A DNA stretch of 64,000 nucleotides from Cyanidioschyzon merolae (taxonomy: Eukaryota), in the NCBI GenBank assembly GCA_000091205.1, contig AP006496.2. One strand, given 5' to 3'. The notes beneath the pieces were generated by a model. The model saw nothing but the letters and a program-made list of their open reading frames with translations, was not told where the DNA came from and did not search any database. Each line of letters starts with the position of its first letter. Position 1 is the first letter of the stretch. The translations under genes and the position numbers were made by a program. This document shows, piece by piece, positions 1 to 62,756 of the stretch.

Positions 1-1529
1 GAACACTTGCCGTCTTTGCCACTGTACTCTCGTCATCGTCCTGTTGGGCAAACACTGTTCCTGACCCATTTCCCCTCCTCTGCTTCTTTATTTGATCTTC
101 TCCGTTCGGCTTTAGTCGACAAGAGGATTTTTTCGTTCTTTTCCGGCAGTCGGCGATGTCGGGCCTCGAAAATCCTCGGCGTCCATGTCCATACCTTCTC
201 CTTCGGTTTCTTATTTCTTCAAATCAACGCACTTGCTTATGCCCTTAGATGAAGACATTCCCTGCGGGAGAAGGGCTTGCGGACGGCAGACATGGTATGC
301 CCCACTGTGTCGCCGTGTGCTGAACGCTTCAGCGATTCGCCCAGTGCAGCGATTATTGCGTTTCACGATAGAAAACACTCCTTCGATGGCATTGAAGCAC
401 GTAGAGCACCGAGGAAGGAAAAGCAGCTCTATCCCTATAGAACCGGCAAAATCCCGAACGCAAGGGGAATGGTGAAATGTCACCTGACTTCAGGGAGAAG
501 CCTTCAGTGATTTGGCAAAGCGAGTGTGATTGTGTGAGCCTTCTCTACGAGAAAGACTGCGGCCGCCAAAAGAATCCGCTGCATCTAGAATCGATGATGA
601 TTTCCGAGTTATCTTCGAGTTCGATCGGATATTCAACGGGCTCGCTGCTCCTGGACTATCCGAGCACGCTCCGACCGTATCATCCAAAGGAAGTCGCATC
701 GATTGAAGAAACAAACCGACGTCTCTCTGCTGCATATCGATACTACCTATCCAGGCACGTTGTTGTAGTTACGATTTCGGTGGAAGATGGCCGTGCGTGG
801 AACTGGACCCCATTTTTGCGACTGTATCCCAGTATTTTTAGGACAACAGGAACAAGCTATCGAGAAACAGAGACGCCCATGGTGGCTACTTTAGTCGCTT
901 TCGCTTTCAGTAAAGTCATCGACGAGTCATTTTCTACCATTGGCGGCAAGCACGCAATAAGAATACCCGTTTTTGGCGCGGAGCGCATATGCTTCTTTCT
1001 TTCCGTGTTCCTATATCATCTCTGTATTGTTGCATGACTGATCTGAAGGAGAAAAGTAGTCCTCCTTGAGCTGTTCAGTGCAGAATATATCCTACATGCA
1101 ATTCGTCTAGGATATATACAGTACATTCCAGCATGATTTCGATCCCATCCTATACATCGCAGCTGGGTTGGAGCGTAAATGAGTTGAGACACTTTAGGAG
1201 GCAGTACTGACGCGCGCTTCGGTCCCTGCACTTCCCTATTTATCTAGGCTTGTTCCAGATATACAGCCTCGACACTCAACGTGCACCAGTGAGAACTTAC
1301 GGATGCGTACTTATTTTCATGATTCTCCGGCATAGTTTCGGAGTCACTTTTTCGAGGCCTTACTGCTAGAACGCTTTGCGACGCCCTCGAACAAAGATGC
1401 GTGAATTAAGCGATATCGTTAATCAGTAGGTACTTACCAGATTGTACCCCCTTCTTTCCTTACGTGTAGCACCCTCAGATGACGCATGCTCCAAGTTCAC
1501 AGTCGTTCTATTGTAAGGCAACTCGTTGG

Positions 1530-2660
1530 CGCAACAATGCGCGCTGCTGAATTGAAGAGGAGGAGAAATTCTCCACTTCGTCCATGGTCGAGCTCATTGC
1601 ATGCATATGCTTAGAGTTCACTGAAATATTCGTGTGAAATAATGAATCCCGTTTGAGACGCAAATCCTTTCCTCATTGCAACCATAGACAAAACGGCATT
1701 CCACAATAGCGCGACGCCTCTCAACGGATATGTTCTCGGATGCTTCCGTTTCTTTTCTTTGCGTGGTAAAGGGTTCTGGACTCCGGCTTGAGTCATCGTA
1801 GCGATCGCTATTCGTGCAGAGTGCGTTTCCGCTGTATTCGAAATGTGCGTAGGGAGGAGTCGACGTTTCTTGACTTGATCTCGAGTCTAGATTTTCCTCA
1901 TGGTACGTTTTTCACCATGGACAGCATCGCGTCCCATAAACTCTCTTCTGTTCGAAAAACAGCAGAGAACGGAGGGTGAGTCATCATATTCAACCCCATT
2001 TATTCTGCATCTATCAAACCGATAGAGGACGTCATCGGGGCCGTGAAATGAAGCAGATGGAGAGATTTCGAATGGGACAACTGCACCTAGTTATGCTGCG
2101 GACGGATTACCCGGCGAGGGGATCGTCCAGAAGAAGCCCACGATCGAAGAGCACGACACCAGGCGTGAATACCAAGGGGCTCATCGCGAGGAGCCCTCTT
2201 TACCCGCCGAGGGCCTGTACCAAGCGATGAAGCAAGCATTCACGCGTCACGTGACGGTCCTCAGAGGAGGAGAAGGTCCAAATGATATATAGGAACACCT
2301 TAGCAGGTTCAAGGGCGCCCGTACGCGGGACGCACCGAGCCTGCACACAGAGAAGATGAAAATAGGAAGCGAAACGAAGATCGCATCTTGGGCCAGTCCA
2401 TTTCATCGTTCGACAGCAACTCGGAATCTAGAAATCAGATCTTGAACGCTGCCACCGATACCCTTCGACTGCTGACAACGCTGCTGGAGGGAAAGGAAAG
2501 ACCGGCGTATTTAAAGCCAAAGGTCAGCGAAGCGGAAAGGAGGCTGTCGCAGAATTATCCCCCAACGACTAATGTTCGTGGCAATGGGAAGAGACCCAAA
2601 ATTTAGTTTCTACACCCGAGTCAGCTGACTGGACCGGTTCCACTTTATTCTGAAATAGGT
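1530..2660 (+). mobile_element. Miniature, internally deleted TnpB/Fanzor-like derivative (family 2, copy a)
   Basis: 5-prime block caacaatgcgcgctgctgaattgaag, shared with the other family-2 copies. Mid block ...gacaaaacggcattccacaatagc. 3-prime remnant RNQILNAATDTLRLL (degenerate D-x-NAA-x-NIL RuvC-III motif) at about 2430. Conserved tail ...gtggcaatgggaagagacccaaaatttag...tacacccgagtcag...ttattctgaaatagg ending at about 2655. Confidence 0.6.
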
Positions 2661-2859
2661 GTGAAGCGATGCTCACTTTGGATGAAGTTTAAGGAAACTG
2701 ACCGCTCGTTGCGTCGGGGCGATGGATCTTTGTCGACGCCTTCCACGACCGAAAAACCAACCAAGCCCACAACCACTGCTTCAATGAATAGCGCAACGAA
2801 CGCTCTGCAATCAGCAATTCAAAGAACACCACACCTCATCCGTCACTACATAGAGAAAC

Positions 2860-4287
2860 TCACTGTCCACATCCCGGAACAGAGGGCGCGAAGCCTATGG
2901 ACGAATTCTCGCGATTAAAGACAGTTGTAAAACGCCGGAGGACAAGGTCGCCAATCACAACAAGTGCACCTGTGGGCGAGAGAACCTCTAGGCCCAAGCA
3001 ATAGTACAGCTCTCCAGCGAGTTCCACTCTTATTAGATATGTGTCGCGCGAGATGTTCAGCGTCGCGTCACTGTCGAATCTTATTGTTATGTCCGGGAAA
3101 CTACGGTATGCGGCATCCGAGAGGAGCGTACAGCTAGGTGCCTCCGACCAGAACCTGCTATGGCACAGGTGGGCGTCAGCTGCACAGACAACTGACTTGA
3201 TTTCCTGAATCACTTTGGTGAATGCTTCGCCACCTAACGCCATAAGCGTTGTGCCAGAGTCGAAGACCACTGGATCGGCATATGAGCGCAAGTTGGATCC
3301 ATTTGGGCCAACACGGAACTCCTTGACGCTGGCTGCATAATATGGGACAAGGCTCCGAGGAAGATACCGTACCCAAGAGTAGGGTCCCCGTCGAAAACGC
3401 GTGTCCGCCTCTGCGCCGAGAATGAGAGCGCCACCGGTATCCGATAGGCAAATACTAAAGATATTCCTCGCAACCACGCCCTCCTCGAACATGATGTCGA
3501 ACAGCGGTTTCGGGCATGATGGAGAGCATGCTGCTTCCTGGAATGCGAGCCCCCAAATGCCACCCACATTGCGCCGTTCGAACGTTGGAGAGTCATACAA
3601 AATCGCCGTGTAAAATGCTTTTCGAACGCTCAGCCCTGCACCGGGCAAACTCACAGGGCCTTGATGCAACGCTCCAAACACGTAGGAACCGTCCGCATAC
3701 GACAATATCATGCCGCAGCTTTCAGGATCAAGAAACGAGCAGCATGCTTCGTTCCTGCGAGAGCATGCTCCACAGAGCGCGCTGCAAGTCCCCGATAGAC
3801 ACACGCTGGAGTCGCTGCAGGGAACCCTGGTGGCATTCCAGTCCGATAATCGTATAATGCCGTCACTCCGCGGACAGTCTAGGCATCGTGACACTGCGAA
3901 GGCCAGGTTGGCGCTCCCCGTGTCAATCTGAACGCCAATCTCCTGACCATCTACACCCAACCGGGCGTAGTATTCACCAAGTGGAAGAAGCTCGCCGTGT
4001 AGCGGCTCAACGGCGCCAGCGCGGAATACCGCAGCCGCAGAGGCCCGCTGCACCGCTGGAGCAAAGTTCGCTCCGCCTGCACTCGAACCAAGCGCACCCT
4101 CGAGCCCGGCCCGCACGTGCTGGTACTTGAGCAAAGCGGGCCGCACTTCGGCAACTTTCTGGTGGCGTTTCTCGAGGGGTAGCACCCGTGTTGCTGCAGC
4201 GGCCGCAAGAGTCAGCGCCTCACAGAGCATCACTGCCCATAAGAGAACGGCCAACACCAGCCGCACAGCGCTACTAGTCAAGTGCAT
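2860..4287 (-). CDS. Pepsin-like (A1 family) aspartic protease, secreted or vacuolar
   Basis: Both catalytic motifs are present: VQIDTGSANLAF (DTGS) and VVFDSGTTLMAL (DSGT), with the conserved flap and Cys-rich regions. The track ORF 2860..4464 was trimmed to the in-frame ATG (cat at 4285-4287), which precedes a hydrophobic signal peptide MHLTSSAVRLVLAVLLWAVML. Confidence 0.8.
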   Translation of the reverse strand: MHLTSSAVRLVLAVLLWAVMLCEALTLAAAAATRVLPLEKRHQKVAEVRPALLKYQHVRAGLEGALGSSAGGANFAPAVQRASAAAVFRAGAVEPLHGELLPLGEYYARLGVDGQEIGVQIDTGSANLAFAVSRCLDCPRSDGIIRLSDWNATRVPCSDSSVCLSGTCSALCGACSRRNEACCSFLDPESCGMILSYADGSYVFGALHQGPVSLPGAGLSVRKAFYTAILYDSPTFERRNVGGIWGLAFQEAACSPSCPKPLFDIMFEEGVVARNIFSICLSDTGGALILGAEADTRFRRGPYSWVRYLPRSLVPYYAASVKEFRVGPNGSNLRSYADPVVFDSGTTLMALGGEAFTKVIQEIKSVVCAADAHLCHSRFWSEAPSCTLLSDAAYRSFPDITIRFDSDATLNISRDTYLIRVELAGELYYCLGLEVLSPTGALVVIGDLVLRRFTTVFNRENSSIGFAPSVPGCGQ

Positions 4288-4765: not shown

Positions 4766-5695
4766 ATGGGAACTGCACACGAGTCACTTGTTGTCGCAAC
4801 CTGGGAGTTCTCGCAAAGCGGAGTCGAAAGCTGTTTTGACTGCCTTCGGAAAGGTGGAAAACCGCTCGACGCAGTTGAAACTGGCATACACGTTGTAGAA
4901 CTCGAACCGACTGTGACCTCAGTCGGATACGGAGGCCTGCCGAACGCGAACGGCGAACTAGAGCTCGACGCAGCCATCACGGACGGTGCCCACTTCGGGG
5001 CTGTGTTTGCTTTGAGGGGATATCGCAGCGCGATCGGGATCGCTCGGGGAGTTCTGGAGCGCAGCGAGCATACGGCACTAGCGGGCAACGGCGCTGTGAA
5101 CTTTGCCCAGGAAGTTCTCGGTGAAGCACCCTTGCCCGATTCGGAGCTGCTAACCGAACACGCTCGACGCCGTCTGGCGGAATACCGAGCCGGCAGGTTC
5201 CAAGGACGGCCCAATGAATCGCATGACACCGTAGGGATGATAGCGGCTCAAAGCACAGGTGATATTGCCGCCGGCTGCGCCACTTCGGGATACCCGTTCA
5301 AGCGACCCGGCCGAGTGGGCGACTCACCGCTACCCGGCGGCGGACTTTTCTGTGAATCGGGGCTGGGGGCGGCGGTAGCTACTGGTGATGGTGACGACCT
5401 CATGCGTCTGTGCCCGACGCATCTCATTGTCGAACTCATGCGAAATGGACAGAGTCCCCAGCGCGCATGTGAAGAGGCCGTTCAGCGGGTCATGAGATAC
5501 CGTGAGCAGACAGGTCGAGATTGCCGTGGCGCGTTCATTGCCGTGCGCTGTGATGCCCTCGCTTGGGGTGCACATGCGACGCACGAAGGCTTCGTGGTTG
5601 CCCATGCCGATGGTCGACGCATGGATCAATCATTGCTTATACCTGTTGAGGTACCCGAAGCGAGGAACAAGCCCTGGCGACGCGTCTGTGTCTAG
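4766..5695 (+). CDS. Isoaspartyl peptidase / L-asparaginase (Ntn-hydrolase, plant-type asparaginase family)
   Basis: The autoproteolytic and nucleophile motif HDTVGMIA is present. GRVGDSPLPGGG and GDGDDLMRL blocks are typical of asparaginase_2 / glycosylasparaginase. The start is a true ATG at 4766. The last ~20 codons lie inside a 93-bp tandem repeat. Confidence 0.8.
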   Translation: MGTAHESLVVATWEFSQSGVESCFDCLRKGGKPLDAVETGIHVVELEPTVTSVGYGGLPNANGELELDAAITDGAHFGAVFALRGYRSAIGIARGVLERSEHTALAGNGAVNFAQEVLGEAPLPDSELLTEHARRRLAEYRAGRFQGRPNESHDTVGMIAAQSTGDIAAGCATSGYPFKRPGRVGDSPLPGGGLFCESGLGAAVATGDGDDLMRLCPTHLIVELMRNGQSPQRACEEAVQRVMRYREQTGRDCRGAFIAVRCDALAWGAHATHEGFVVAHADGRRMDQSLLIPVEVPEARNKPWRRVCV

Positions 5696-5900
5696 GCTTG
5701 CCGATGGTCGACACATGAATCCTGCATTGCTTGTATCTGTTAAAGTACCCGAGGCGAGGAACAAGCCCTGGCGACGCGTCTGTGTCTGGGCTTGCGGATG
5801 GTCGACACGTGAATCATGCATTGCTTGTACCTGTTGAAGTACCCGAGGCGAGGAACAAGCCCTGGCGACGCATTTGTGTCTAGGTTTGAGCCGCGTAATG
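5631..5900. repeat. Tandem repeat, about 93-bp unit x about 2.9 copies
   Basis: Units begin at about 5631, 5725 and 5817 (cattgcttatacctgttgaggtacccgaagcgaggaacaagccctggcgacgcgtctgtgtctaggcttgccgatggtcgacacatgaatc...). They are about 90 percent identical. The first unit contains the asparaginase stop codon. Confidence 0.85.
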
Positions 5901-7454: not shown

Positions 7455-7880
7455 CGTGGAATAGAAATGCCGTGTAGATGCTTCGATAATAGGCGATACT
7501 TTGGAGGATCCGTTGTCGATGCATCGATAATGAGCGATGCTTTGAAGGATGCCGTGTAGGTGCTTCGATAATAGGCGATACTTTGGAGGATCCGTTGTCG
7601 ATGCATCGATAATGAGCGATGCTTTGAAGGATGCCGTGTAGGTGCTTCGATAATAGGCGATACTTTGGAGGATCCGTTGTCGATGCATCGATTATGAGCG
7701 ATGCTTTGAAGGATGCAGTATAGATGCTTCGATAATAGGCGATACTTTGGAGGATCCGTTGTCGATGCATCGATAATGAGCGATGCTTTGAAGGATGCAG
7801 TATAGATGCTTCGATAATAGGCGATACTTTGGAGGATCCGTTGTCGATGCATCGATAATGAGCGATGCTTTGAAGGATGC
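7455..7880. repeat. 82-bp minisatellite, about 5 copies, plus a degenerate relic at about 7960-8035
   Basis: The string cttcgataat recurs at 7481, 7563 and 7645 (period 82). The unit is gcttcgataataggcgatactttggaggatccgttgtcgatgcatcgataatgagcgatgctttgaaggatgccgtgtaggt. It is rich in ATCGAT and ATGCAT palindromes. Every frame on both strands is open across it, so the track ORFs 7330..8055, 7373..7939 and 7692..8042 are repeat artefacts. Confidence 0.9.
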
Positions 7881-10659: not shown

Positions 10660-11700
10660 AGCCCACTCATCTATCTCGGGTGTCTACACTAGAATATGGG
10701 TCTTCCGACCGCCATCAACATTAGCCTCTGCAGTTTTTTTCTGTGACAGCTTCCTTTTCCATTCTTGTCTCCGGCTTCAAACGCACAGGTCTTTCGCTTC
10801 TCTACAGCTCGGTTCACAGCAGCCGAAGGATGTTTACGGCAATGTGCAAGTCCCGATTTCGCCGTTTCAGGTCGCTGTCTAGGCCTTTCATCAACAGACC
10901 GAAGTTGCTAACTACACATTGCTTGTCACTTTGATCTTCTTCGTATACTACCTTGGTGTGCACTTTTCTGTGGCGACGCGTGGCTGTCGTCAGGTGTTCC
11001 CATTTGTCCACCATAGCTTCTCATCCAAGGGCCGCTCTGTAGCACGTGAACGCCTGCTCGATGTCTCGGTACATGCCGTTGTGAGGTACACAGAGATCGA
11101 CACGATGCATTTCTCCGTTTCCGCGCATGGTACCGCACTTAACGATACAAGGCTTCTTCTGTACGATCCTTCAGCGAGGGACTTGTGCGCTACACATGCG
11201 GAAGCGCACGCAGTGCCATTCTGTTGAGGTTTCGTGGAACGCGATGTTGTCTATGGCGAAACACGGACCGTAACGAAAATCCAGGCTAGAGAAGGAGTCG
11301 AGGACCTTCGATCTGTGTACACTCCTTTCGTGCAAAGCGGTGAAGCGTTCTCCACTATAATTGATCGCTGCGACAACTCAAGTCCGAGTCCAAGCCCCTT
11401 TTTCATGCAAACAGAAGAGAAAGGGGCCCCTGGGAGCATATCCCGTAAGTGCTATCATGCTGTTGATGTCGAATGCCGTTTCTTCGATGGCTACATGGAA
11501 AGTAGGATACGTCTTTCGAAGGAAGTCGATTATTTGGCATGAGAAATTTAGTGAACGGTCCGCATTAGCTTGTGAACAAGTTGTCAAGGGACAACGTCGA
11601 GTTCGTTTCATCGTCAATCCAGCGACCCGCATTGCTGCGCTTTCAGTCTGCTTTGAAACAGAAATAGAACGGTTTGAGAATCCGTAATTTGAACATGCTT
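10660..11700 (-). mobile_element. Miniature TnpB/Fanzor-like derivative (family 2, copy b)
   Basis: On the minus strand: 5-prime block gcaatgcgggtcgctggattgacgatg. Mid block FHVAIEETAFD (track ORF 11378..11632). 3-prime remnant KRRNRDLHIAVNILRLL (track ORF 10814..11014). Conserved tail ctaatgttgatggcggtcggaagacccatattctag...agacacccgagatag. Confidence 0.6.
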
Positions 11701-36066: not shown

Positions 36067-37089
36067 CACGCGTTTTACGTCTTCCACTATGAAGCGGGCC
36101 TCGTGCAACTGTAGCTGAAGTTCGCAGCGGCGTAGTGCACGAGACATCCGCGCTGAATCTTCGCCATGACGATTTCTGATGACAAAACGTTCACATTGAC
36201 CATGGATCGCAGGGTGCGAGATGGATATTGGCATTCTGGAAAACGTTCATCATGCTGGATCCTACCTCCGATATCCATTACTTAAACTTCTTCTCGAATT
36301 TACTGGTCGCTTCACACGATCCATCGAGCGCCGAGTGCCTGTTTTGAGCTCCAGCTAAAGCGCCCAAACCGCCAATGCTGAAGCAGCACGGAGACAGAAC
36401 AGCTTTGCCATGCTACAGAGGGCATCGGCTCGAGAAGTGTTTCATCCGACACGGGGTCGAGATTCATTATCATTCTGGGAGCCTGCAAGCTGTGCTGATA
36501 GATCTACTGCCTGCGGCAGCGGGAAGCGATTTACAAGGAGTCCAGTGCGACCGATGCGACGCCCAAACGCACCCTACCTGCCCCTTATCCAAGAATAAAA
36601 TACGTTGCGGACGAGCAGCTCAAGACGCTCCACTGCACCTGCCACCGAGGGTAGCATGAAGCACCAGTCCGGCAGACTCAGCCGGCTCGCGGGACTTTCC
36701 GACTAGAATGTAAAAGTTCGACAATATGGAAACCTATTCCCCGTTCAACGTTTATCCTAGAGGGGAACGAAATTGTTATCTTGGCGCTAGTTAGTGGTCA
36801 GTTTCTGTTCTTTGTTCTATAGAGCGCAGTCGATATGCGTACATACAAATCTGGCATGCATGAGACACGAGGCGCATCTCGCCGTTGAAAGGAAACACGA
36901 TCCTTACCACTAGTTGACTTGTTGCTCTATTGGGCATGTTGCATTTGCGTTGAAGTCGTAGCAAAGAAAGTTTTCAGTTCAATCGTATTTCAAACCGCAA
37001 GCAAGCATATTCTAGTGTTTTTCGGTGTTTATAACAGAAGTGTTCGAAGCGGGTTCGTTTTCAAAAAAAAAGAAAAGTTATCGAAATGG

Positions 37090-39320
37090 AAAGGGAGGAC
37101 CCTGGAGGGCCAGTATCGCTGGTTGGCGGAAGAAACCAAAAGCATGACGGAGCAAAGAGGTACAAGAGAAGACGAGGAAGCATAAGGGGGAGACCCGACG
37201 TTAATGGCTGCACGAAAGACGACACCACGACAAGAAGTTGGTGAAAGCCTGTCTTCTGAGACATATCAAGAGCCCGTACTACCAAAAGTTGCAAAAGGCT
37301 GTCAGAAAGCCTGTCAAGTCGTACTCCACGAGTGTGGGTGACGTTTCTTTAAGACTGATGCGTATGGCGAGAGATCTGTATCGCGAATTGCTGCACATGG
37401 AAAGATTCGGGTTCCGTAAGAGTTTTTCAACAGGATCTTCACCAGCTACCTGATGGCTGGAACAGGGAAAACGTCTTGGAGAGACGAGCGAGTGCACGTC
37501 CTCCAGGAAAACTTCGCGGAGTACCGCTTCAACGGTACGTCATACAAGGATGACTCGCATATTTACGAATACGGGGTGATGAAGTACCTCACGAACCTGA
37601 AGAACCACATGATCGTGCGCCTCGAACGCTTCATGGTACGCTCTTTCTTTGCACTCTACCCGGGACTGTCTCGCAAAGGGATATGGGCCATCATCCACGG
37701 TATCACGAAAGATCGTCATCATGAACAGTAGATAGAATTCATCGACAAGAAGAAATCACACAGGAGAAAGAATCAGGGTTATGTAATATGTGTGGCTATT
37801 CAAGAGCACCGTTCGGTCCTGGAGCTTGTCAACCCACAGTGGGAGTATCAGATATGAAAAAAGATGAAGAAAGATGTCATCTCCTCATCCTGCGCTATGT
37901 CGTGTTTTTGAATCGAGAACTCGAACGCAAGGCAGAGATGGATCAGGATATGGAAGAAAATGAAGCGTCGGTGGAACGGAATGCTATGCCTTTGAAGAAG
38001 ATCTTCTATGTCGTTCCGCTATGCAACACCAAGTCACATTTTGTGACGATCGACTCCAGAATCTTTTACGGCGTCATGAAGGAGATCCGCTCGGAGTTCG
38101 ATGTAAGCAGGTAGGAGTTCACTGGCAAAAACTGGGAGACGTACTGGAAGAATACCTTCCATTTCAAACGTCTCAAAACGAGCAAGCAAGGGCTATTCAC
38201 GGAGATCACCGAAACCGATGGAGTATCCATTTGCGCACACTATAGTCGCTTGAAGGCGGATCGTCCTATTGTGTTTTCGGCTTCGCCCTCGCTGAAGCAT
38301 GAAGATGAGAGGGAAGCAGGCCATAAGACGAAGGAGATGCAAGAGAACGACTCCCTGGTCAGCGCAGATCCTGGGAACACGAATATCATAACCATCGCGG
38401 CACGCAAGTGTCGGGAAGATGGTATCGACGGCAACTTACGTCACAAAGACATGCGTCTTTTGAAGTTCTCAAGAGCGAGATACTACCGAGAATCGGGAAT
38501 AATGAATTGGAGGAGGAAAAGTGAGAAATGGAATGCAGGAGTGAGGGAGCAACTGGAAGCGATCAGCCAGGTGACTAGCCATGGGGCGGACTTCAAAGCT
38601 TACCTAGAGTTCATAGAAACTCAAGCTGCTCATTACGAGGAGCTGCGGAAAGAGTACACAAAGCCCCCGCGGGCTCGTCTGCTTATGAACTTGTACTGTG
38701 GGTAGCAGCGTGCATTTGCCAAACTTTTCAATCAGATGAGCACCCTCAAGGAGGTCAAGAGTCAAAGACTCGTAGTAGCTTATGGAGCACGGCGCTGGAG
38801 GCCCAACAGAAGAGCATACCAGCTCTATCAACGAGAGCGTACAAGGAGTGCGCCATTCGTTTCGTCACGGTACCGATAGATGAGTTTCGAACGACCTATG
38901 TGCACCACGAGCTGGGGTGCCTGCTCCAGAGGATCGAGATGCAGTGAAGGCAGCGGAGCCCTGAGGATATAGAAAAGTACGGAGAGCTCACAGAGAAGGA
39001 TGTGGAGTAGAGAGCACGAGTTCGAGGACGACTTGCCCCAGAGAGTACAACCAGCGGCGGCAATAAACGCATGGATTTTGTGAAGCTTGAATTGAACACC
39101 TCCCTCAATGGCAGACGATGTGTGGTATTGAAGACGAGACCCGCCGAGCTGACGCGATCCAACTTTGTGGGCAGCCTGTCAGGTTCGAACCGTACAAGGG
39201 AAAGCCAATGCCGATGGCAAGGCGCCGGCCAAAATAGGCGGGAGGCGTCTGCAGGTGGTTGTGTATATATAGACTCTCTCGTCGGTATGTATTCGCCATG
39301 ACGATGAGAATCAACAGCAC
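37090..39320 (+). pseudogene. Fanzor/TnpB-like (RuvC-type RNA-guided nuclease) element, family 1, copy 1. Frameshifted, and the RuvC-III Asp is lost.
   Basis: Coding pieces lie in frames 2/1/0/2/0/2 (track ORFs 37238.., 37453.., 37788.., 38021.., 38250.., 39071..). RuvC-I SADPGNTNIITIAARKCREDGIDGNLRHKDMRLLKFSRARYY at about 38360. RuvC-II-like RFVTVPIDEFRTTYV at about 38850. The position homologous to RuvC-III reads LELNTSLNG, where copy 2 has NRDFNAATNI. It is paralogous along its whole length to 59440-61620. Confidence 0.7.
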
Positions 39321-40167
39321 TTCTCCCTGCGATTCGCTTGGCTACAGGAGCGGTAGTTTGAGGAACTTTGGAGATGAAGATAGTTGGAAATAAAGGGAGC
39401 AATGGCATCCGAGGTGGCGCCAAATTTATCATGGCTACTGAATGAAGGATTTGTGCAGTCTGCGGATGCTGGTGGATGCGGCTGCTCGTGGTAGCACAGT
39501 TGAAACGAAGTTCAGCTGTACAGCGACGGCGCATCGGCCTCGAGTCCCGTCATTCGTGCAAGGCTTCAAGCTTTCAGAGCTCGAATTCGAAAATGATTAC
39601 TAGGTCCCAGTGATCCCTGTTTTTATGTGACGGGCCTATCGGTGAAGACGACAACGCATAGCGGCTTCAGCTGACTGTCCGCCTGCGCTGCCAACAACCT
39701 GTTGCAGGCGCCTGTTACGTGCGAGCAACGTTCTCGTTGAGATTGCGGGCGATCTTTCACCAGCGGTAAGCAGGGCGTTGCGTCTCCTGTGTTGCAAGCT
39801 CGCCATGTCCAGCGGGTTCTGAGACAGAGCACTGGCTGCATAGCGCTGCAGTTGAGAGACGGAACCTGTCTCAAGTTGATCGCGTGCGCCTTAGCGCTGT
39901 ACCGCAGGCAATGCAGTTGGAGTATTTGTCGCCCGGTAGCTGGCGACAGCCGCAGCATTTGTCCCGAGCTCGTTGCACCGGCGAGATGCGCACCCCAAAA
40001 CTCGTGCGCTAGATTAGGATTTCGCACTTGTTTCGATCACTCCACTCTGGAAACAAGGAGTGCGAAAGCAGGTAACACAAGAAGGTCTTTGTAATGTGTC
40101 ATGATCGATGCGTGGAATGTACACAGGCATGCGAGCTCGGGCATGCCTGGTGATTCTAACCGGTTTC

Positions 40168-41699: not shown

Positions 41700-42700
41700 T
41701 GCGACTTTTTCATCGCAACTCGTGTGCGCTGCCACTCGAGCCGCAGTATTGGCGACACAAAACAGTGAACGCTGTCCCTTGACGTCTTCAGCACATGCTC
41801 ATGCCGAAAGTTCTCTGAAATTTTCATGTCAAGTAATTGATTACTTTCGAGAAACACTTACTCCTCACTTCGTGGCTCTCGACAAAACGGCATTCGACAG
41901 CAGCATACTACTTCAAATGGGATCTGCTTCCACAAGATTCTGCGTCTTCCTACTACAAGGAATATGGTCATAGACGGTGCTTGCAGTCATTGCGGCAATC
42001 CCTTGCACTGAAGAGCTCGCCACCGCATCAGTAGAAGAGGATTAGACGAGTCGAAATTTCCCGACTTGATATCGAATCTGTATTGTGCTTCCGTTGTTAT
42101 TTTTACTATGGAAAACATCGCGTCCGAAAAGTAGTCTGTTGAATGTAACAGTGTGCACCTGTGTGAGCAGGGGACAGAGTAGTTGTCGAAGGGATCGCGC
42201 AGAAGCAGCTCGTCCTTGTAGGGTGCGGCACTGGTGGCTGAAACGGAGGAGGTCATAGAGGGATGTCCCCTGTACACGTCAAGGGCGTATACTGACATGA
42301 AGTAAACGTTCATGCGCCACCGGTCGACGCTCGGAAGATGAGATCTGGTGAACATATGTGTACAACTCACCACAGCAATGCATCAGCGCTGCGAAGGGTG
42401 CGTCATAGCTGTATCCATAGAAGATGAAAATGGCAAGAAATGCATAGATTCTTACTTCCGCATGTACGTGAATTGTGCCGGCAATATCGGACAGCGATTA
42501 AACCAGGACCTGAACGCTGGCATCAACCTCCTTTAAGCACTGACAACGGAGCTCGAGGGTAAGGATAGGCCGGCATTTTTGAATCCAGATACAAGAGAGA
42601 GGAAAATGAAGCAGACTCAGAAAAAGCACGAATGGTTTGTGTTGATGGCAAAGGGAAGAAAACAAAACATTAGAATGCACGCCTGAGCTACCTAGGAAGG
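41700..42700 (+). mobile_element. Miniature TnpB/Fanzor-like derivative (family 2, copy d)
   Basis: Mid block SLKFSCQVIDYFRETLTPHFVALDKTAFD (track ORF 41722..41973), about 75 percent identical in nucleotides to copy b. 3-prime VIAVSIEDENGKKCIDSYFRMYVNCAGNIGQRLNQDLNAGINLL (track ORF 42348..42536; the RuvC-III motif DLNAGINLL is preceded by Cys residues). Tail ctgacaacggagctcgagggtaaggataggccggca...tgttgatggcaaagggaagaaaacaaaacattagaatg...cacgcctgagctacctagg. Confidence 0.6.
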
Positions 42701-47175: not shown

Positions 47176-47310
47176 GGGATCCCCTAAAGCGCGTTGGTGT
47201 TCATGACATTTTATCGATGGACCTACCTGGGATCCCCTGCACTGCGCATTGATGTTCATGACATTTTAGCGATGGACCTCCCTGGGATCCCCTGCAGTGC
47301 GCTTTCGATG
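47176..47310. repeat. Tandem repeat, about 55-bp unit x about 2.4
   Basis: gggatcccctgcactgcgcattgatgttcatgacattttagcgatggacctccct is repeated; it starts about 165 bp after the copy-e terminus. Confidence 0.8.
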
Positions 47311-57339: not shown

Positions 57340-57730
57340 ATCCATAAAGCGTAACTACAGAGCACTTAGCATCTGTTGCACGAGTAGGAAACTGGATGGA
57401 ATGCTCCACTCCAACCTGCGGCGATGCAGCACAGCAGATCCAGATACAATATTTGCAGGACATTTCGCGTCAAGTGCACAGGTAGGAAACTGAAAAGAGT
57501 GCTCCGCTCCAACCTGCGGCGATACAGCACATCAGATACAGGTAGAGTCTTTGCAAGACATTTCGCGTCAGTTGCACAGTTAGGAACCTGACAAGAGCAC
57601 TCCACTCCAGCGAACCGCAATGCAACACAGCAGATCCAAATAAGTCTTTGCTGGACATTTCGCGTCAAGTACACAGATAGGAACCTGAGAAGAGCGCTAC
57701 GCTCCAGCGTGCTGCACCGCAGCCCGAGCT
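57340..57730. repeat. Tandem repeat, about 96-bp unit x about 4
   Basis: The unit (gacatttcgcgtcaagtgcacaggtaggaaactgaaaagagtgctccgctccaacctgcggcgatacagcacatcagatacaggtagagtctttgcaa) recurs four times at 80-90 percent identity. It lies between the convergent Maf and 57925-59115 genes. Confidence 0.85.
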
Positions 57731-57924: not shown

Positions 57925-59115
57925 TTACATAAGCGCTTCGGGCTCTTCCAGCTCCATCAGCTTCGCGCACAAGGACGGCACAACCTGTGCAGGCCAGAGA
58001 CCCTCGACGATTCGCTCCCTACCGAGCAGGATCAAGCGTAGGTCGTAACTGTAGGGGCTGCCCGAGGCGCCTAGCCACATCAAACTGCTCTCGAACTCGG
58101 CAACAATTCTGCTGCTTTCTCCGTCAGACGCGTTCCACGAAATTCGCTCCTTACAAAACCCATCCCCCGAATGCACGGGTACACCTTGCGCGGTGGGTTT
58201 CGACGCCACGCCATTCATTATATCGCCCATTTTGTACTGTAGGGCCTGCACCAGCCTCCGAAAATGCCGGAATTCCTCGCGCGAGAGTGCAATCGTCCAA
58301 TGATCATCGCCCACGAGAGCACAGTCAGACGGCGGTGCCGCGGGATCGTGGCCGATCTTGAAACCTGGCCCGCTGAAAACATACTGGGGACGTACGCCTC
58401 GCGGTGCCGAATGATCGCCATCGCGTACTATAAGCGAGCAGCAGCCATTGATATCGCACTCCACGATCATTTGCGCAGGCTCACTTTTCTGGATTGGGAG
58501 CTCCATGGCAGGAGCAGAGTATTCATCGCCTTGCAGTTGCTGCCCCATTTCGTCCAGATTTGGAGTCGACGCTGCTGTGTAGGTTACGCTGTTTGCATAG
58601 TCGTCACCGGCATCGTTCAGGCCCGTCCGAGGAAGCTGGTACCAGCCGGTAGTGTCCTGCTCGGGCTCGACAAACAGCTCCGCATCGGAGACCGCAACTT
58701 TCCTTCCGACTTGCGCGCGAACTGCCTCTTGTCCGGACGCCGCCTTGCCCTCTTCTGGGCGCATCTTTGCCCGCACCTCTTGCAGCAGCTCGTCGAGCTG
58801 TGAGCGCAAATCGTCCAGTGCTTTCATCGCCTGCTTGCGCATCCGCTCCCTTCGTTCGCTGATTGCCCTCAGCTCAGCCTTAAGCTGCTCCTGTGTCTTC
58901 CGCGGCCGCATAGGAAGCACGCTGGGAATATCCGCATGCGACTCGCCTGAATCGCTGGACGGTATCGAAGACGACTCCTGGAGCGTTATCAGCGGTGCCG
59001 TCGCGCCACGGCGTCGCCTGCCGGTGCCCTTAGCATCGACCCTGGAGCTTGATCTCGCTGCCACGGCAACCGAGGGACACAGACTCCAGGCACCGGGATA
59101 CGCAAAACCAATCAT
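57925..59115 (-). CDS. Hypothetical protein, 396 aa (N-terminal coiled coil, Cys-containing C-terminal region)
   Basis: Long ORF. ATG at 59113-59115 (the track start at 59121 is GTG). No recognised domain; it contains ECDINGCCSLIVRDGDHSAP. The real gene status is uncertain. Confidence 0.4.
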   Translation of the reverse strand: MIGFAYPGAWSLCPSVAVAARSSSRVDAKGTGRRRRGATAPLITLQESSSIPSSDSGESHADIPSVLPMRPRKTQEQLKAELRAISERRERMRKQAMKALDDLRSQLDELLQEVRAKMRPEEGKAASGQEAVRAQVGRKVAVSDAELFVEPEQDTTGWYQLPRTGLNDAGDDYANSVTYTAASTPNLDEMGQQLQGDEYSAPAMELPIQKSEPAQMIVECDINGCCSLIVRDGDHSAPRGVRPQYVFSGPGFKIGHDPAAPPSDCALVGDDHWTIALSREEFRHFRRLVQALQYKMGDIMNGVASKPTAQGVPVHSGDGFCKERISWNASDGESSRIVAEFESSLMWLGASGSPYSYDLRLILLGRERIVEGLWPAQVVPSLCAKLMELEEPEALM

Positions 59116-59439
59116 AAGCACAAAAATAAACGCGTATCTCTGCGCAGCTCAGAGAAACTCCAACGGTGTCACCGCTTGCAGCAGCGAATCGAGGAGAGTT
59201 TTCTCGGAATGAACTGCGAACGTGCACCGGGTCGCGACGGTGCTCAGCTGGAAGTCGCCGCCGCCGCCGCCGCCGTGCTGCACATCTGAATGGATTGACG
59301 GGCGATACAGGATGTTGTTGTGGTACAGTCTTTCATCTCCATTGTGTTCCATCCCCGGGGTTCTTGTTATCAAATGCTTTTCGCAGTTTATAGCAGATTC
59401 GGCACAAGTGCGTTCATTTAAAAGAAGTACAAATTCCAA

Positions 59440-61620
59440 AGGAGCGGTACGGACATGGAAGTCTAGGATCCTGGAGGGTCGATGTCGGCGCCTGCTGGAA
59501 AAAGCACGGAATACAATGCCGAGCTCAGAGGACCAAGAGAAGATGAAGAGGCAAAAGCAGGAGGTCCGACGTCAACAGCAATTCGAAAGGCTAGACTGTG
59601 AAGAGATTGTAGTGGAAGCCAGTCTTCATCGACATATCAATGATCCGCACAAGCGAAATATGCAAGAGGCCATCAGAAACCGTATCGCGTCGTACTCTAC
59701 GAGTGTTTGTATCGCTTCTCCAGGAATAATCCGTTTGGTGAGGGAGATGGATCACGACGTGACGGAGATCAAAACAGTCGAGGTTTCGGGGGAATTTTTC
59801 GACAGGACCTTTATTCGTTACCTGATGGTTGGCACAGGGGAAATGTCGAGGAGAAATGAGCGAGTGCAAGCCCCGCACGAAAATCATGCTGAATAACGCT
59901 TCAACGGTACTAGATATAGGGACACTGGCGAATCTACGAATACGGCGTGATGGACAACATCACGAACCTGAAGAGCCATATGACCGTGAACCTCAAACGC
60001 TTCATGATACGCTCCATCTTTGCGTTCTTCCCTGGCCTGTCTCGCAAGCGGACATGGGCCATCATCGATGTCAGCATGAACGATCGTCGGAACGAAGAGG
60101 AGATCGAAATTGTCGGTAAGAAGACGCCACGCAAGAGAAAGAATGAAGCTTCTGTAATCCGCGCGACTATTCATGAGCACCGTGCGGTCTTGGGTCTTGT
60201 AAATCCAACAGAAAAGGTAACAGATACAAAAAAGACGCTATCCCCTCATCCTGCGCTGTTTCGTCCTCCTGAACCGAGAGCTCGAACGCAAGCCCGATAT
60301 GGAGCAGCGTGCGGAAGAAAAAGCAGAGTCGGTGGAACGGAAGGTTTCCCTACTTGGGAAGCGCTTCGGCGTCGTTCTGTTGTGCAACATAAAGTCATGT
60401 TTCATGAGTATCGATTCCAGCGTCCTTTACGGTATTATGAGGGATATGTGTCCGGAGTTCTTTATCAGCAACAAGGAGTTTACAGGTCAAAACCGGGAAA
60501 CTTATTGGAGAAATAGATTCGATTCAAGCGTTTCAACACGAGCAAGAAAAGGGTACGCACGGGGCGATCGAAACCGATGTATTAGCCATGCGTGTGCACT
60601 ATCAGCGCTTAACGGCAGATTGTCCAGTTCCGTCGTCGGCTTCGCCCTCGGCGAAGCACAAAAAGAAGAAGGCGGGCCCTGGAACGTATAATCCCCCGGA
60701 GAACAACTTTGTCGTCGGCGTGGGCCCGGAGAACAAGGATATCATGAGCATCGCTGTGTCCAAGTGTGGGGAGGATGGTATCGACGGCAACTTATGCCAA
60801 AAAGACATGCATCTTTTAAAGCTATCGAGAGCGAAATATTACAGAGATTCTGGGGTATTTAATGCGAGGAAACTAATTGAGATATGGAACTCAGGAGTAA
60901 AGGAGCATCTGGAAGCGATCAGCAATGTAACGCTCCGCGGAGTGTACTTTCGAGTTTTTCCGGAATTCATGGAAACCCAAGCTGCTCATTACGAGGAGCT
61001 GCGGAAAGAGTACACAAAGCCGCGTTGGGCTCGTCAGCGTATGAACCTGTACAGACTGAAGCAGCACGCACTCGCCGACTTCCTTAATCTGTTGACCGCC
61101 CTCAAGGAGGACAAGAGTCAAAGGCTTTTATTGGCACACGGAGCAGGGAACTGGGCGTCCAAAAAAGGGAGCATACGAGCTCTATCGGCACGAGCGGACA
61201 TGGAGTGCGCACTGCGTTTTGTCACAATATCGATACATGAGTTCCGAATAGCGTACGTGCTCGATGGGCTGGAGTGTACACTTCAGAAGGTCGATACGGA
61301 CAGAAGCCAGCCGAGCGTTTCGGAGACAGAAAAGTCCGGAGAGCGGACAGAAGAGCAAATGGAACGGAGGGCACGAGTTCGGGGAATCCTTGCATATTTG
61401 AGTACAGCCAGCGGCAATGCTGGAAAGAGTCGGTGAATCGAGACTTCAACGCCGCCACCAATATCAGGAAATGTGCGGTGCTGGAGAAGAGACCCCAGGA
61501 GCTGACGCGATCCAACTTTGTCGTGCAGCCTATCAGGGTCGAAGTGTACAAGTAGCTGAAGACGATAGCAGCGGGCCAGTCAAAATAGGCCGTAAGGCGC
61601 CTGCGCGTTGGTATGAATTT
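59440..61620 (+). mobile_element. Fanzor/TnpB-like (OrfB-type, RuvC nuclease) element, family 1, copy 2. Frameshifted, and the RuvC-I Asp is lost.
   Basis: Coding pieces are track ORFs 59222.., 59947.., 60299.., 60588.. and 61274... RuvC-I position GVGPENKDIMSIAVSKCGEDGIDGNLCQKDMHLLKLSRAKYY at about 60720. RuvC-II-like RFVTISIHEFRIAYV at about 61200. Cys cluster plus RuvC-III CIFEYSQRQCWKESVNRDFNAATNI at about 61430-61480. The stop is at 61555, followed by a conserved non-coding tail. Confidence 0.75.
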
Positions 61621-62756
61621 ATCCAACACGGCCGAGAGAAAGTTTTCGTTTCACTGAGCGTTTGTGAAAGTTGTGTGGCTTTGTTGACGGGCGCATGGTT
61701 GCTTTCTTGCAAAGTGGCGCGTTTCCGCTCAACGGCAAGCTATGGAGTTGGACGGCGTCTCCTAAAGGGAGGCCTCTTCGCTGCGAGCGGACCCGGAAGC
61801 TGTCGTGGCGTAGAGGCCGTGGCTCCTGGTCGGTGCGGGCGTCGCACTCGGGCGAGACGGACCCACGACTGGTGCAACTTGGTGGAACAGACCGCACAGG
61901 AACCTCAGGCGACCACGAAAGGTTGCTGTGGGAGGCGTTAGAGCGCGACGTGAGCGAAGCTGAAACCGTAGGTAAGCTTCCACAGCCTTTGAGGACAGAG
62001 CTTTTGTCGAAAATAAGGGAATTTGTAGAAGAGGTAGCGCAGCGTCAGTCAGTGCACGATCTGAAAAGTGCGGATTTCGCACTTAAGGATGAGGCCCTAG
62101 CGCCCGACAGTCAGTGGCAGCTCGTTGAACCTAACGAACCGTCGGACGCGGTTCGCTCCACCCAGCCCAGGCGTGCATCGAGTTTTGGGCCGGCTGCTGA
62201 CTGCCTCACACAAAGCCCGCGAGATCGGCTCGCTTCTCAGCCCGGAGGCGCGGACTTTAATCAAAACGGCCAAGAACGCCTTGCAGGCATCAATACCTCA
62301 GGCGTGGACAGCCCTGAGAAAAGGTCAGTGTGTCCGCCCACTGCCGTACACAGAAGGAGCACTGTTTCCGTTCACGCGGAAGAGTGGACTTGGTCAGATG
62401 ATAGCGCGTACGACCCGGTTGATGGAGCGAATGAATACAGACCCGAACAACAACTCAACTCTGATACGCCAAACCCGATACGAGGGAGTGCAAAAGACCC
62501 CTCTGAAAGAGATATCAAAGCCCAGGAGTCCGCGCACCACGCTACCGAGGATCGAGAAATCCTCTCAGAATTGTCGGAAGTCGAGCATGCCAACGACGAT
62601 CGTACCCTGGACACACGCGATGCGTATGGGCGGATGCAGCAGCGCTTGCGCCCAGCGTCACGCACGCAAATGCGCATGGATGTGCCTGGCAACGACACGC
62701 AGCGCGCGCGCGAAGATGCACGAATCGGCCCCGAGCAGCCTGTGTCGCAAGCATCG

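Follow-up and report, generated by a model that had tools for sequence, protein, structure and literature searches.

Two independently decayed copies of the Fanzor1-carrying element CMe-1A on chromosome 14 of Cyanidioschyzon merolae

The DNA analyzed here (the window, 64,000 nucleotides) comes from chromosome 14 of Cyanidioschyzon merolae 10D, with four of its proteins matching strain 10D entries exactly. It contains two long copies and one short fragment of CMe-1/CMe-1A, a published C. merolae family with an intact consensus and a Fanzor1 (TnpB-like) nuclease gene (Bao and Jurka 2013, Mobile DNA 4:12; PMC3627910). According to that paper, CMe-1A has approximately 150 genomic copies, each ~80% identical to the 3,169-bp consensus, and encodes a protein of 734 aa in a gene that is a single exon in the CMe-1 consensus; the element has no TIRs, its TSDs could not be determined, and its 5' 635 bp constitute TE-N2_CMe (PMC3627910). 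We placed both window copies codon by codon on the 734-aa consensus. In the following feature list, element boundaries are from blastn and global alignment, residues from the codon mapping, and the direct repeat from a repeat search.

73-242, minus strand: third, short CMe-1 fragment, from the start of the Fanzor ORF (consensus 856-1017, 77% identity)
36160-36173, plus strand: TTCGCCATGACGAT, 5' member of a perfect 14-bp direct repeat, candidate TSD of copy 1
36177-39291, plus strand: copy 1, full-length dead CMe-1A element (consensus 1 to ~3100)
36177-36812, plus strand: 5' non-coding module of copy 1, TE-N2_CMe-like (consensus 1-635; the alignment begins with consensus 1-2 at 36177/36178)
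37086-39277, plus strand: Fanzor1 ORF remnant of copy 1 (consensus codons 1-734), with 9 in-frame stops and ~12 frameshifting indels
38367-38369, plus strand: RuvC-I D431 of copy 1, kept (GAT in SADPGNTNI)
38882-38884, plus strand: alternative RuvC-II glutamate E603 of copy 1 (DEFRT), kept (GAG)
39086-39091, plus strand: RuvC-III R671-D672 of copy 1, changed to Leu-Glu (CTT GAA; NRDFNAAINI to KLELNTSLNG)
39235-39237, plus strand: TAG of copy 1 at consensus codon 721, common with copy 2
39292-39305, plus strand: 3' member of the 14-bp direct repeat
59311-61693, plus strand: copy 2, 5'-truncated dead CMe-1 element (consensus ~765/785 to 3169), without the TE-N2 module
59455-61624, plus strand: Fanzor1 ORF remnant of copy 2, with 4 in-frame stops and ~8 frameshifting indels
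60723-60725, plus strand: position 431 of copy 2, Gly (GGC; GADPGNTN to GVGPENKD)
61239-61241, plus strand: alternative glutamate E603 of copy 2, kept (GAG)
61439-61444, plus strand: RuvC-III R671-D672 of copy 2, kept (CGA GAC in VNRDFNAATNI)
61586-61588, plus strand: TAG of copy 2 at consensus codon 721, common with copy 1

When the published consensus was compared with the window by blastn, consensus positions 2 to 3021 matched 36178-39190 with 80.5% identity (80.2% for copy 1 in a global alignment), and positions 785 to 3020 matched 59323-61543 with 77.7% identity (77-79% for copy 2 overall). Both copies have the ~80% nucleotide similarity to the consensus along the element, the host is that of the published family, and two copies and a fragment in one 64-kb window agree with its multicopy nature. 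Copy 1 spans the consensus and copy 2 its positions 785-3169, and their identities of 77 to 80.5% are the divergence typically reported for CMe-1A (PMC3627910). As published for the family, the copies lack TIRs (no inverted repeat linking the ends of copy 1 was found in 36100-39450), and copy 1 begins with the TE-N2_CMe-like module. The 5' module is absent from copy 2, as it is from many metagenome copies, which begin near consensus 640-690. The first-pass annotation had described a decayed Fanzor-like element at 37090-39320; these coordinates agree with the ORF remnant, but the element is 3.1 kb long and begins ~900 bp further upstream, so that the whole non-coding module lay outside them. 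Apart from this pair of copies, the window has no long dispersed repeat, and the proposed alignment over ~2.2 kb was reproduced: blastn aligned 37241-39198 with 59612-61552 at 72.55% identity over 1,971 columns (E=5e-175), and in the global alignment the similarity extended from ~37080/59450 to ~39245/61600. Since a family of this kind is expected to leave decayed copies with different lesions, the finding has little weight by itself, and the family, its copy number, the ~80% identity, and the intact 734-aa protein have been known since 2013. Its value is a modest one, a precise annotation of two unannotated relics on a C. merolae chromosome.

TnpB of IS200/IS605 elements (for example, ISDra2) and Cas12f each have one RuvC nuclease, which is split, uses a D...E...D triad, and carries an RD motif in its RuvC-III part, and Fanzor1 proteins were established as RNA-guided nucleases in 2023. 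CMe-1 shares the split RuvC, the triad, and the RD motif and is carried on a mobile element (PMC3627910) but, unlike IS200/IS605, has no TnpA partner. In the family alignments the RuvC-I aspartate D431, located in a hydrophobic strand (xxDPG), and the RuvC-III RD motif (NRDxNAAxNI) are conserved. RuvC-II is rearranged relative to TnpB and Cas12f, with Gly at the canonical Glu position (AYGAG strand) and the invariant E of DEFRT approximately 35 residues later. According to Jiang et al. (2023), the rearranged site of Fanzors, also found in TnpB2, has an inert Gly or Pro where the canonical Glu would be and an alternative Glu downstream, and the residues of CMe-1 fit this Fanzor catalytic site. 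In the intact CMe-1 protein, D431, the relocated E603, and D672 (NRDFNAA) would make up one RuvC active site.

The relationship to Fanzor proteins was tested independently of the published assignment with a 12-sequence family profile, for which the sole match in PDB was SpuFz1 of Spizellomyces punctatus (8gkh and 9ce* states; PDB 8GKH, 9CEU-9CEZ) with an E value of 4.6e-5. The alignment pairs the RuvC-I, DE[FY]xTS, and NRD motifs of the two proteins (DPG with DPN, DEFRTS with DEYKTS, and NRDFN with NRDM), at a sequence identity of only ~13-15%. Additionally, the six best Foldseek matches of an AF2 model were all Fanzor structures (SpuFz1, GtFz, and PpFz), with E values of 1e-6 to 2e-4 compared with 0.29 for the next match. 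The model was built from the 12-sequence alignment and had low confidence (mean pLDDT of 54), with TM-scores of 0.23 to 0.33; thus, we used it just for the Foldseek ranking and regard the structural match as supportive only. From profile and predicted structure, the protein is significantly similar to characterized Fanzor proteins, and by analogy with characterized Fanzor1 proteins it would function as a RuvC nuclease. Searches with single sequences and domain libraries did not recognize the protein: phmmer with the single consensus protein retrieved nothing relevant from PDB (a chance match to angiogenin), Pfam gave only a subthreshold 11-residue match of the consensus to Cas12f1-like_TNB (E=0.51), with the TnpB models below their thresholds, and Pfam and NCBIfam gave nothing significant for the ORF fragments. 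For the metagenome homologues, Pfam gave nothing useful, the precomputed label PF26935 (DUF8286) being a weak, uninformative match. The C4 zinc finger between [TS][TS] and RD is part of the strictly conserved Fanzor motif of Bao and Jurka (PMC3627910), and SpuFz1 has the zinc-ribbon cysteines CxxC...CxxxC, whereas CMe-1 has no C4 finger, only His-His...Cys...Cys (TSYTHHELGC...C, without a second CxxC), and its clade relatives have no cysteines there at all. We took the finger as typical rather than defining, since those who described the family count CMe-1 among its members. A large zinc-finger-less Fanzor1 clade in metagenome and other public assemblies is a further lead, again of modest value.

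Both window copies are dead relative to the consensus. In copy 1, codons 23, 42, 114, 218, 346, 543, 624, 645, and 721 are stops, and indels shift the frame near codons 17, 111, 254, 303/305, 575, 698, 711, 714, 722, 728, and 734. In copy 2, the stops are codons 6, 149, 710, and 721, and the frameshifting indels lie close to codons 19, 157, 259/263, 362, 375, 661, and 731. The TAG at codon 721 is the sole lesion that the copies have in common. Every motif quoted in the first-pass annotation was found in the ORF of the respective copy: LVSADPGNTNIITIA in the copy 1 ORF 38250-38705, MDFVKLELNTSLNG in 39071-39301, VVGVGPENKDIMSIA in the copy 2 ORF 60588-61436, and VNRDFNAATNI in 61274-61555. The mapping likewise bears out its statement that each copy lost a different catalytic aspartate, D672 in copy 1 and D431 in copy 2. 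With many private stops and frameshifts and one catalytic aspartate missing in each, neither copy can make the active protein. An intact consensus had been expected to be reconstructable from the pair, and a two-copy patchwork was indeed open for codons 1 to 720 and carried D431, E603, and D672; the protein, however, has 734 aa rather than the proposed ~650 and was already published. The complementary lesions have no special meaning: with 3 catalytic residues in each of 2 copies, an amino acid divergence of 35 to 38% predicts about 2 chance changes among the 6 positions, and 2 were seen.

We are confident in the following explanation: 37090-39320 represents the coding portion of a dead but full-length CMe-1A copy (36177-39291), ~59311/59323-61693 is a second, 5'-truncated dead copy, and both came from a common diverged sublineage, after which they inserted separately and decayed independently. 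A role of the relics as promoter or 5' UTR of neighboring genes would be compatible with this explanation, and we consider it unlikely. Copy 2 has its 3' end at 61693, 1 bp short of the first in-frame ATG (61695, putative start) of a PPR gene ORF that runs to the window end, and the 5' end of copy 1 (36177) is ~110 bp upstream of the start of a proteasome alpha-subunit gene (~36066); however, this evidence is purely positional, and in such a compact genome nearly any intergenic insertion adjoins a gene start.

The divergence of the two copies shows traces of selection on the protein. Over the 2,192 sites shared by the copies, copy 1 is 80.6% and copy 2 is 79.1% identical to the consensus (divergence of 19.4% versus 20.9%), with private branches of 250 and 275 substitutions, respectively. 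The encoded proteins, mapped codon by codon, are 64.8% (copy 1) and 61.6% (copy 2) identical to the consensus and 50.7% identical to each other. The Ka/Ks comparison suggested in the first-pass annotation gave dN/dS values of 0.52 and 0.58 when each copy was set against the consensus and of 0.62 when the copies were set against each other, with 0.35 to 0.45 in the RuvC half, and among 60 non-redundant metagenome copies the RuvC half was most conserved at codon position 2, followed by positions 1 and 3. Additionally, at 106 sites both copies carry the same non-consensus base, where roughly 30 such sites would be expected by chance; these diagnostic substitutions and the codon-721 stop are missing from the published consensus. 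Together, the dN/dS values of 0.5 to 0.6 and the shared differences indicate that part of the divergence predates the death of the copies and arose in a shared, still-selected sublineage. This sublineage had probably diverged from the published consensus under protein-level selection and already carried the stop at codon 721. The pair thus offers some evidence, of modest value, of family diversification under selection.

The alternative that both copies decayed purely neutrally from one master in a star phylogeny, so that divergence equals age and copy 1 is simply older, seems to us quite improbable. It would agree with the larger number of lesions in copy 1 (9 stops and ~12 frameshifts versus 4 and ~8) and with its 8 private stops, close to the ~10 expected if all 250 private substitutions were neutral, while the 3 private stops of copy 2, where ~11 would be expected (Poisson P of ~0.004), suggest a longer functional period for that copy. 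However, the difference in lesion totals, 21 versus 12, is not significant (binomial P=0.16), the nucleotide divergence of copy 1 is not the larger one, and the private pN/pS values, 0.64 in copy 1 and 0.78 in copy 2, point the opposite way. Neutral decay from one master should also give a dN/dS of ~1, and the excess of shared differences, together with the shared stop, points to a common diverged source lineage. Divergence, lesion counts, and pN/pS conflict over the dates of the copies, and the greater age that had been assigned to copy 1 is not established by these values. The proposal of decay from one active ancestor is right about two independently decayed Fanzor-type insertions but oversimplifies their history, in view of the dN/dS values and the 106 shared differences. 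Overall, the first-pass observation was correct but ordinary, and its interpretation was partly supported.

There is next to no chance that a functional Fanzor is still encoded by either copy or by both, with introns or programmed frameshifts accounting for the frame breaks. According to Jiang et al. (2023), Fanzor genes of other eukaryotes did acquire introns, but the consensus gene was published as a single exon, the C. merolae genes in the window are uninterrupted ORFs, the breaks are 1- to 7-bp indels and point-mutation stops located differently in each copy, each copy lacks a catalytic aspartate, and the closest strain copy is built alike; the copy 1 element also occurs in a strain that is 99.25% identical. 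Apart from the stop at codon 721, the breaks are private to each copy, in agreement with the first-pass view that they are independent indels. Equally negligible is an origin of the two regions as host gene paralogs or by segmental duplication rather than by transposon insertion, as could be suggested by just two long copies, both intergenic, in the window, given that the similarity ends at the element ends between unrelated flanks, that the family has ~150 genomic copies in the literature (PMC3627910) and 412 related stretches in metagenome contigs, and that the orthologous sites are empty in relatives.

The spacer between the eIF2alpha and proteasome genes, which holds copy 1, measures ~4.1 kb here versus 914 bp in a Cyanidiococcus-type relative, and the spacer between the DUF1818 and PPR genes, which holds copy 2, measures ~2.8 kb versus 717 bp in Cyanidiococcus yangmingshanensis; no CMe-1 similarity was found in either of the shorter spacers. 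The empty sites were judged from spacer length and absent CMe-1 similarity, the intergenic DNA being too diverged for base-level alignment, and a search for the exact insertion site of copy 1 in the empty site of the relative gave local scores equal to those of shuffled sequence. On these sequence comparisons, Cyanidiococcus-type relatives appear to lack both insertions at the orthologous positions. In the preferred reading, the copies would have entered the C. merolae lineage by separate insertions, later than the Cyanidiococcus split, and then decayed independently.

The element ends provided some further leads of modest value, a candidate TSD and a terminal hairpin. In the Fanzor1/TnpB superfamily, a guide RNA (omega RNA or fRNA) is encoded at the 3' end of the element, and several features of the CMe-1A 3' end bear on this point. 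Of 34 family copies, 31 have a predicted 3'-terminal hairpin (mean z of -1.85). This hairpin comes in two variants of sequence, with a single compensatory pair, and stands out alone, as the whole 3' region of the 34 copies was not unusually stable (mean z of -0.7) and RNAalifold gave no consensus structure for their 3' 100 nt. Rfam had no match in the whole window, and third-codon-position conservation was not clearly raised at the ORF end in the 60 non-redundant metagenome copies. Both window copies have lost the predicted hairpin, and copy 1 has no recognizable counterpart of the final ~70 bp of the consensus, where the terminal hairpins lie. According to Bao and Jurka (PMC3627910), the Chlamydomonas Helitron2-type elements CRe-1/2/3 are non-autonomous carriers of Fanzor1 with terminal hairpins, no TIRs, and variable TSDs of ~7 to 19 bp. 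CMe-1A resembles them in being non-autonomous and free of TIRs, in its predicted 3' hairpin, and in the 14-bp repeat at copy 1, but this clear flanking repeat occurs at one CMe-1A copy only, and the likeness shown does not include Helitron end signatures.

The 14-bp repeat TTCGCCATGACGAT flanks copy 1, whereas no TSDs were determined in the published description. It is the only perfect repeat of at least 14 nt in 36100-39450, and with one mismatch the match grows to 15 of 16 bases, compared with 12 or fewer in cross-locus controls. At eight other full-length metagenome copies, no TSDs above the cross-locus controls were found. A 10-bp repeat at copy 2 (59295-59304 and 61684-61693) was rejected as a TSD, because its 3' member coincides with the terminus of the element itself and matches the consensus end at 8 of 10 bases. 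That the copy 1 repeat is a genuine TSD, the first determined for CMe-1A, and that the element belongs with makers of long, variable-length TSDs such as the Chlamydomonas Helitron2-type carriers is a tentative and rather doubtful suggestion; the grouping is proposed because CMe-1A also lacks TIRs and has conserved 3' hairpins and a T-rich motif at its 5' junctions. If the TSD is true, its perfect preservation would mean that copy 1 was mobilized in trans after its Fanzor gene had decayed.

The window is part of chromosome 14 of the thermoacidophilic red alga Cyanidioschyzon merolae. Its genes are uninterrupted ORFs, and four long ORFs were exact matches to the C. merolae 10D eIF2-alpha, DNA polymerase delta, CMN205C, and Rieske proteins. 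The first-pass annotation had proposed that two stretches, 37090-39320 (copy 1) and 59440-61620 (copy 2), are decayed paralogs of one Fanzor-like element. The two regions proved alike at the sequence level: blastn paired 37241-39198 with 59612-61552 in a single alignment (72.55% identity over 1,971 columns; E=5e-175), and in a global alignment the two matched over about 37080-39245 and 59450-61600. All of the peptide motifs quoted in the annotation were found in ORF fragments of both copies. Self-comparison of the window revealed no further long dispersed repeat. It did show tandem repeats with units of about 82 bp (7467-7880, five units, 96-98% identity), 94 bp (5605-5888), 98 bp (57377-57709), and 53 bp (47176-47310), and a weak inverted similarity, unrelated to CMe-1, between the distant sites 11467-11597 and 41769-41899 (74% over 136 bp).

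Both copies are dead, and they belong to a transposon family described in 2013, with an intact consensus already published. The pair of paralogous relics is real and its initial reading essentially correct, and the finding is an ordinary one. Library searches with the ORF fragments returned nothing, and the longest fragment, used as a database query, matched only metagenome proteins (about 55% identical), which contain GADPGNTNIITIA, VVAYGAGRW, DEFRTSYTHHELGC, and FVNRDFNAAINIR. Bao and Jurka (2013; PMC3627910) described the Fanzor1 protein CMe-1, carried by the C. merolae element CMe-1A, which is present in about 150 copies that each match a consensus of about 3 kb at about 80% identity; some copies are still intact. 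The element is without TIRs, and its 5' 635 bp are 95% identical to the element TE-N2_CMe; the supplement of that paper gives a 3,169-bp consensus with a 734-amino-acid protein encoded by a single exon. Consensus positions 2-3021 aligned to 36178-39190 (80.5% identity) and positions 785-3020 to 59323-61543 (77.7%). Copy 1 is therefore full-length and starts about 900 bp upstream of the interval first assigned to it, while copy 2 is truncated at its 5' end near consensus position 765-785. The further features of the family in the window were as follows.

Features of the CMe-1 family in the window
36177-36812: TE-N2-like 5' module of copy 1, within the full-length element
36160-36173 and 39292-39305: exact 14-bp direct repeat TTCGCCATGACGAT bracketing copy 1
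73-242 (first match 129-234), minus strand: third CMe-1 fragment, start of the Fanzor ORF (consensus 856-1017, 77% identity, local alignment)

The Fanzor assignment was examined with the consensus protein. Against Pfam it gave only a subthreshold match of 11 residues (VNRDFNAAINI) at the end of Cas12f1-like_TNB (E=0.51), and phmmer against PDB returned nothing relevant. A database search with the consensus recovered near-full-length relatives with identities down to 31%, and a profile of 12 such proteins matched exactly one sequence in PDB, the Spizellomyces punctatus Fanzor1 (8GKH and the 9CE* states; E=4.6e-5), with the RuvC-I, DE[FY]xTS, and NRD motifs lining up. An AF2 model built from the same 12-protein alignment was poor (mean pLDDT, 54); the best six Foldseek PDB matches of this low-confidence model were all Fanzors (SpuFz, GtFz, and PpFz; E=1e-6 to 2e-4), and the seventh had an E value of 0.29. 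At the canonical RuvC-II position (AYGAG) the family has Gly, and about 35 residues downstream it has an invariant Glu (DEFRT); this arrangement corresponds to the rearranged Fanzor catalytic site described by Jiang et al. (2023). In contrast, the C4 zinc finger included in the strictly conserved Fanzor motif (Bao and Jurka 2013; PMC3627910) takes a degenerate form in CMe-1 and is missing from its relatives, and no CxxC...CxxC zinc ribbon lay between RuvC-II and RuvC-III in CMe-1 or in any of the 22 aligned relatives. Searched with a profile, 1.84 billion cluster representatives (50% identity) yielded 3,624 relatives at E≤0.001 and 476 at ≤1e-30, many of them 600 to 700 amino acids long. Those checked came mostly from metagenome or Logan assemblies, with one from Haematococcus lacustris, and Pfam TnpB models remained below threshold on the ones tested.

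We mapped both copies codon by codon onto the consensus ORF.

State of the Fanzor gene in the two copies (consensus-protein numbering)
In-frame stops: copy 1, 9; copy 2, 4
Frameshifting indels: copy 1, about 12; copy 2, about 8
Protein identity to consensus: copy 1, 64.8%; copy 2, 61.6%
D431 (RuvC-I): copy 1, kept; copy 2, Gly
E603 (alternative Glu): copy 1, kept; copy 2, kept
R671-D672 (RuvC-III): copy 1, Leu-Glu; copy 2, kept

Each copy has indeed lost a different catalytic aspartate, D431 in copy 2 and D672 in copy 1. Such complementary lesions seem unremarkable and what chance decay would predict, because, at an amino acid divergence of 35-38%, chance alone should alter about two of the six catalytic positions (three residues in each of two copies), and two were altered. 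A patchwork of the two copies was open over codons 1-720, contained all three catalytic residues, and was 82% identical to the published protein. The expected continuous ORF was thus recovered, with a length of about 720-734 amino acids instead of the 650 anticipated. The sole lesion common to both copies was a TAG at codon 721 (39235-39237 and 61586-61588), where both have AAAATAGGC and the consensus has AAAAAGAC, which points to a shared source whose protein was 14 residues shorter than that of the published consensus. When 61 near-full-length metagenome copies were counted in the same way, none was fully intact, and the window copies ranked among the most degraded beside them. A 75-bp in-frame unit (about 25 amino acids, KHEEKKEA.P..QEVQ.NDFVV.A; consensus 2117-2196), directly upstream of the RuvC-I aspartate, is present in one to six tandem repeats across the metagenome copies (for example, at 5220-5596 of locus L023 and 981-1357 of L035) and as a single unit in both window copies.

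Nei-Gojobori dN/dS values were 0.52 for copy 1 and 0.58 for copy 2 versus the consensus, 0.62 between the copies, and 0.35-0.45 in the RuvC half. In that half, conservation among 60 nonredundant metagenome copies was highest at codon position 2 and lowest at position 3 (0.93-0.96 versus 0.81-0.86 over consensus 2201-2800). These results indicate that much of the family's divergence arose with the protein under selection, in agreement with the long-lasting coding capacity remarked on by Bao and Jurka (2013; PMC3627910). Over 2,192 sites, the two copies departed from the consensus in the same way at 106, compared with about 30 expected if independent, and together with the common stop this places both in one sublineage. 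The claim that copy 1 is the older was not established, as the evidence conflicted: copies 1 and 2, respectively, showed 19.4% and 20.9% divergence over shared sites, 250 and 275 private-branch substitutions, private pN/pS values of 0.64 and 0.78, and 21 and 12 lesions (p=0.16). Copy 2 had three private stops, compared with about 11 expected were all private substitutions neutral (Poisson P of about 0.004), a deficit that hints that it was functional for longer.

The 14-bp repeat around copy 1 may be a target-site duplication (TSD). It was the sole perfect repeat of that length there and, at 15 of 16 bases, exceeded every cross-locus control match (at most 12), which makes it a TSD candidate for CMe-1A, for which Bao and Jurka (2013; PMC3627910) could determine no TSDs. 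Flanking repeats of eight other full-length copies did not rise above controls. Copy 1 stops about 70 bp short of the 3' end of the consensus, and the terminal hairpin predicted at the 3' end of most family members (31 of 34 copies; mean z, -1.85) is gone from both window copies. This conserved stem-loop abuts the element's 3' end (for example, in loci L058 and L025) and occurs in two variants, CGTTTTTC-TTTT-GAAAGGCG and CGTCGTTCGA-CTT-TCGAACGGCG, which differ with one compensatory pair. Neither RNAalifold nor Rfam supported a defined RNA, and the hairpin is a candidate part of either a guide RNA or a transposition signal. Beyond the stem-loop at the family's 3' ends lies a GT-rich flank (TTTGTTG or GTGGTGG), and a T-rich motif, GAT-TTCTTTT, which resembles the 3' end, is present at the 5' junctions. 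Two structural forms were seen among the metagenome loci, one with the 635-bp TE-N2-like 5' module and one whose start lies around consensus 640-690. In many members of the latter group, a piece of consensus 84-282 lies inverted about 100 bp upstream, and in some a solo element end (the last 95 bp or so) lies about 750 bp upstream.

Copy 1 occupied the same place in a metagenome contig that matches 10 kb of the window at 99.25% identity. In a Cyanidiococcus-type relative (L090; eIF2-alpha 91% identical) the gene order was as in the window, and the distance from eIF2-alpha to the proteasome alpha-subunit gene was 914 bp (1312-2226), versus about 4.1 kb in the window (36067-40167). Similarly, the DUF1818-PPR spacer that flanks copy 2 was 717 bp in Cyanidiococcus yangmingshanensis (L091; 9284-10000) versus about 2.8 kb (58912-61694). 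No similarity to CMe-1, in DNA or in protein, was seen in either orthologous spacer; thus, both insertions either are confined to the C. merolae lineage or have been lost by the relatives. The spacers had diverged too far for base-level insertion junctions to be recovered. The 3' end of copy 2 (61693) lies 1 bp before the first in-frame ATG of the PPR gene ORF (61695), and the 5' end of copy 1 (36177) about 110 bp upstream of the proteasome alpha-subunit gene start (36066). Because these element ends adjoin gene starts, the relics may be situated in promoter or 5'-UTR sequence of the two genes.
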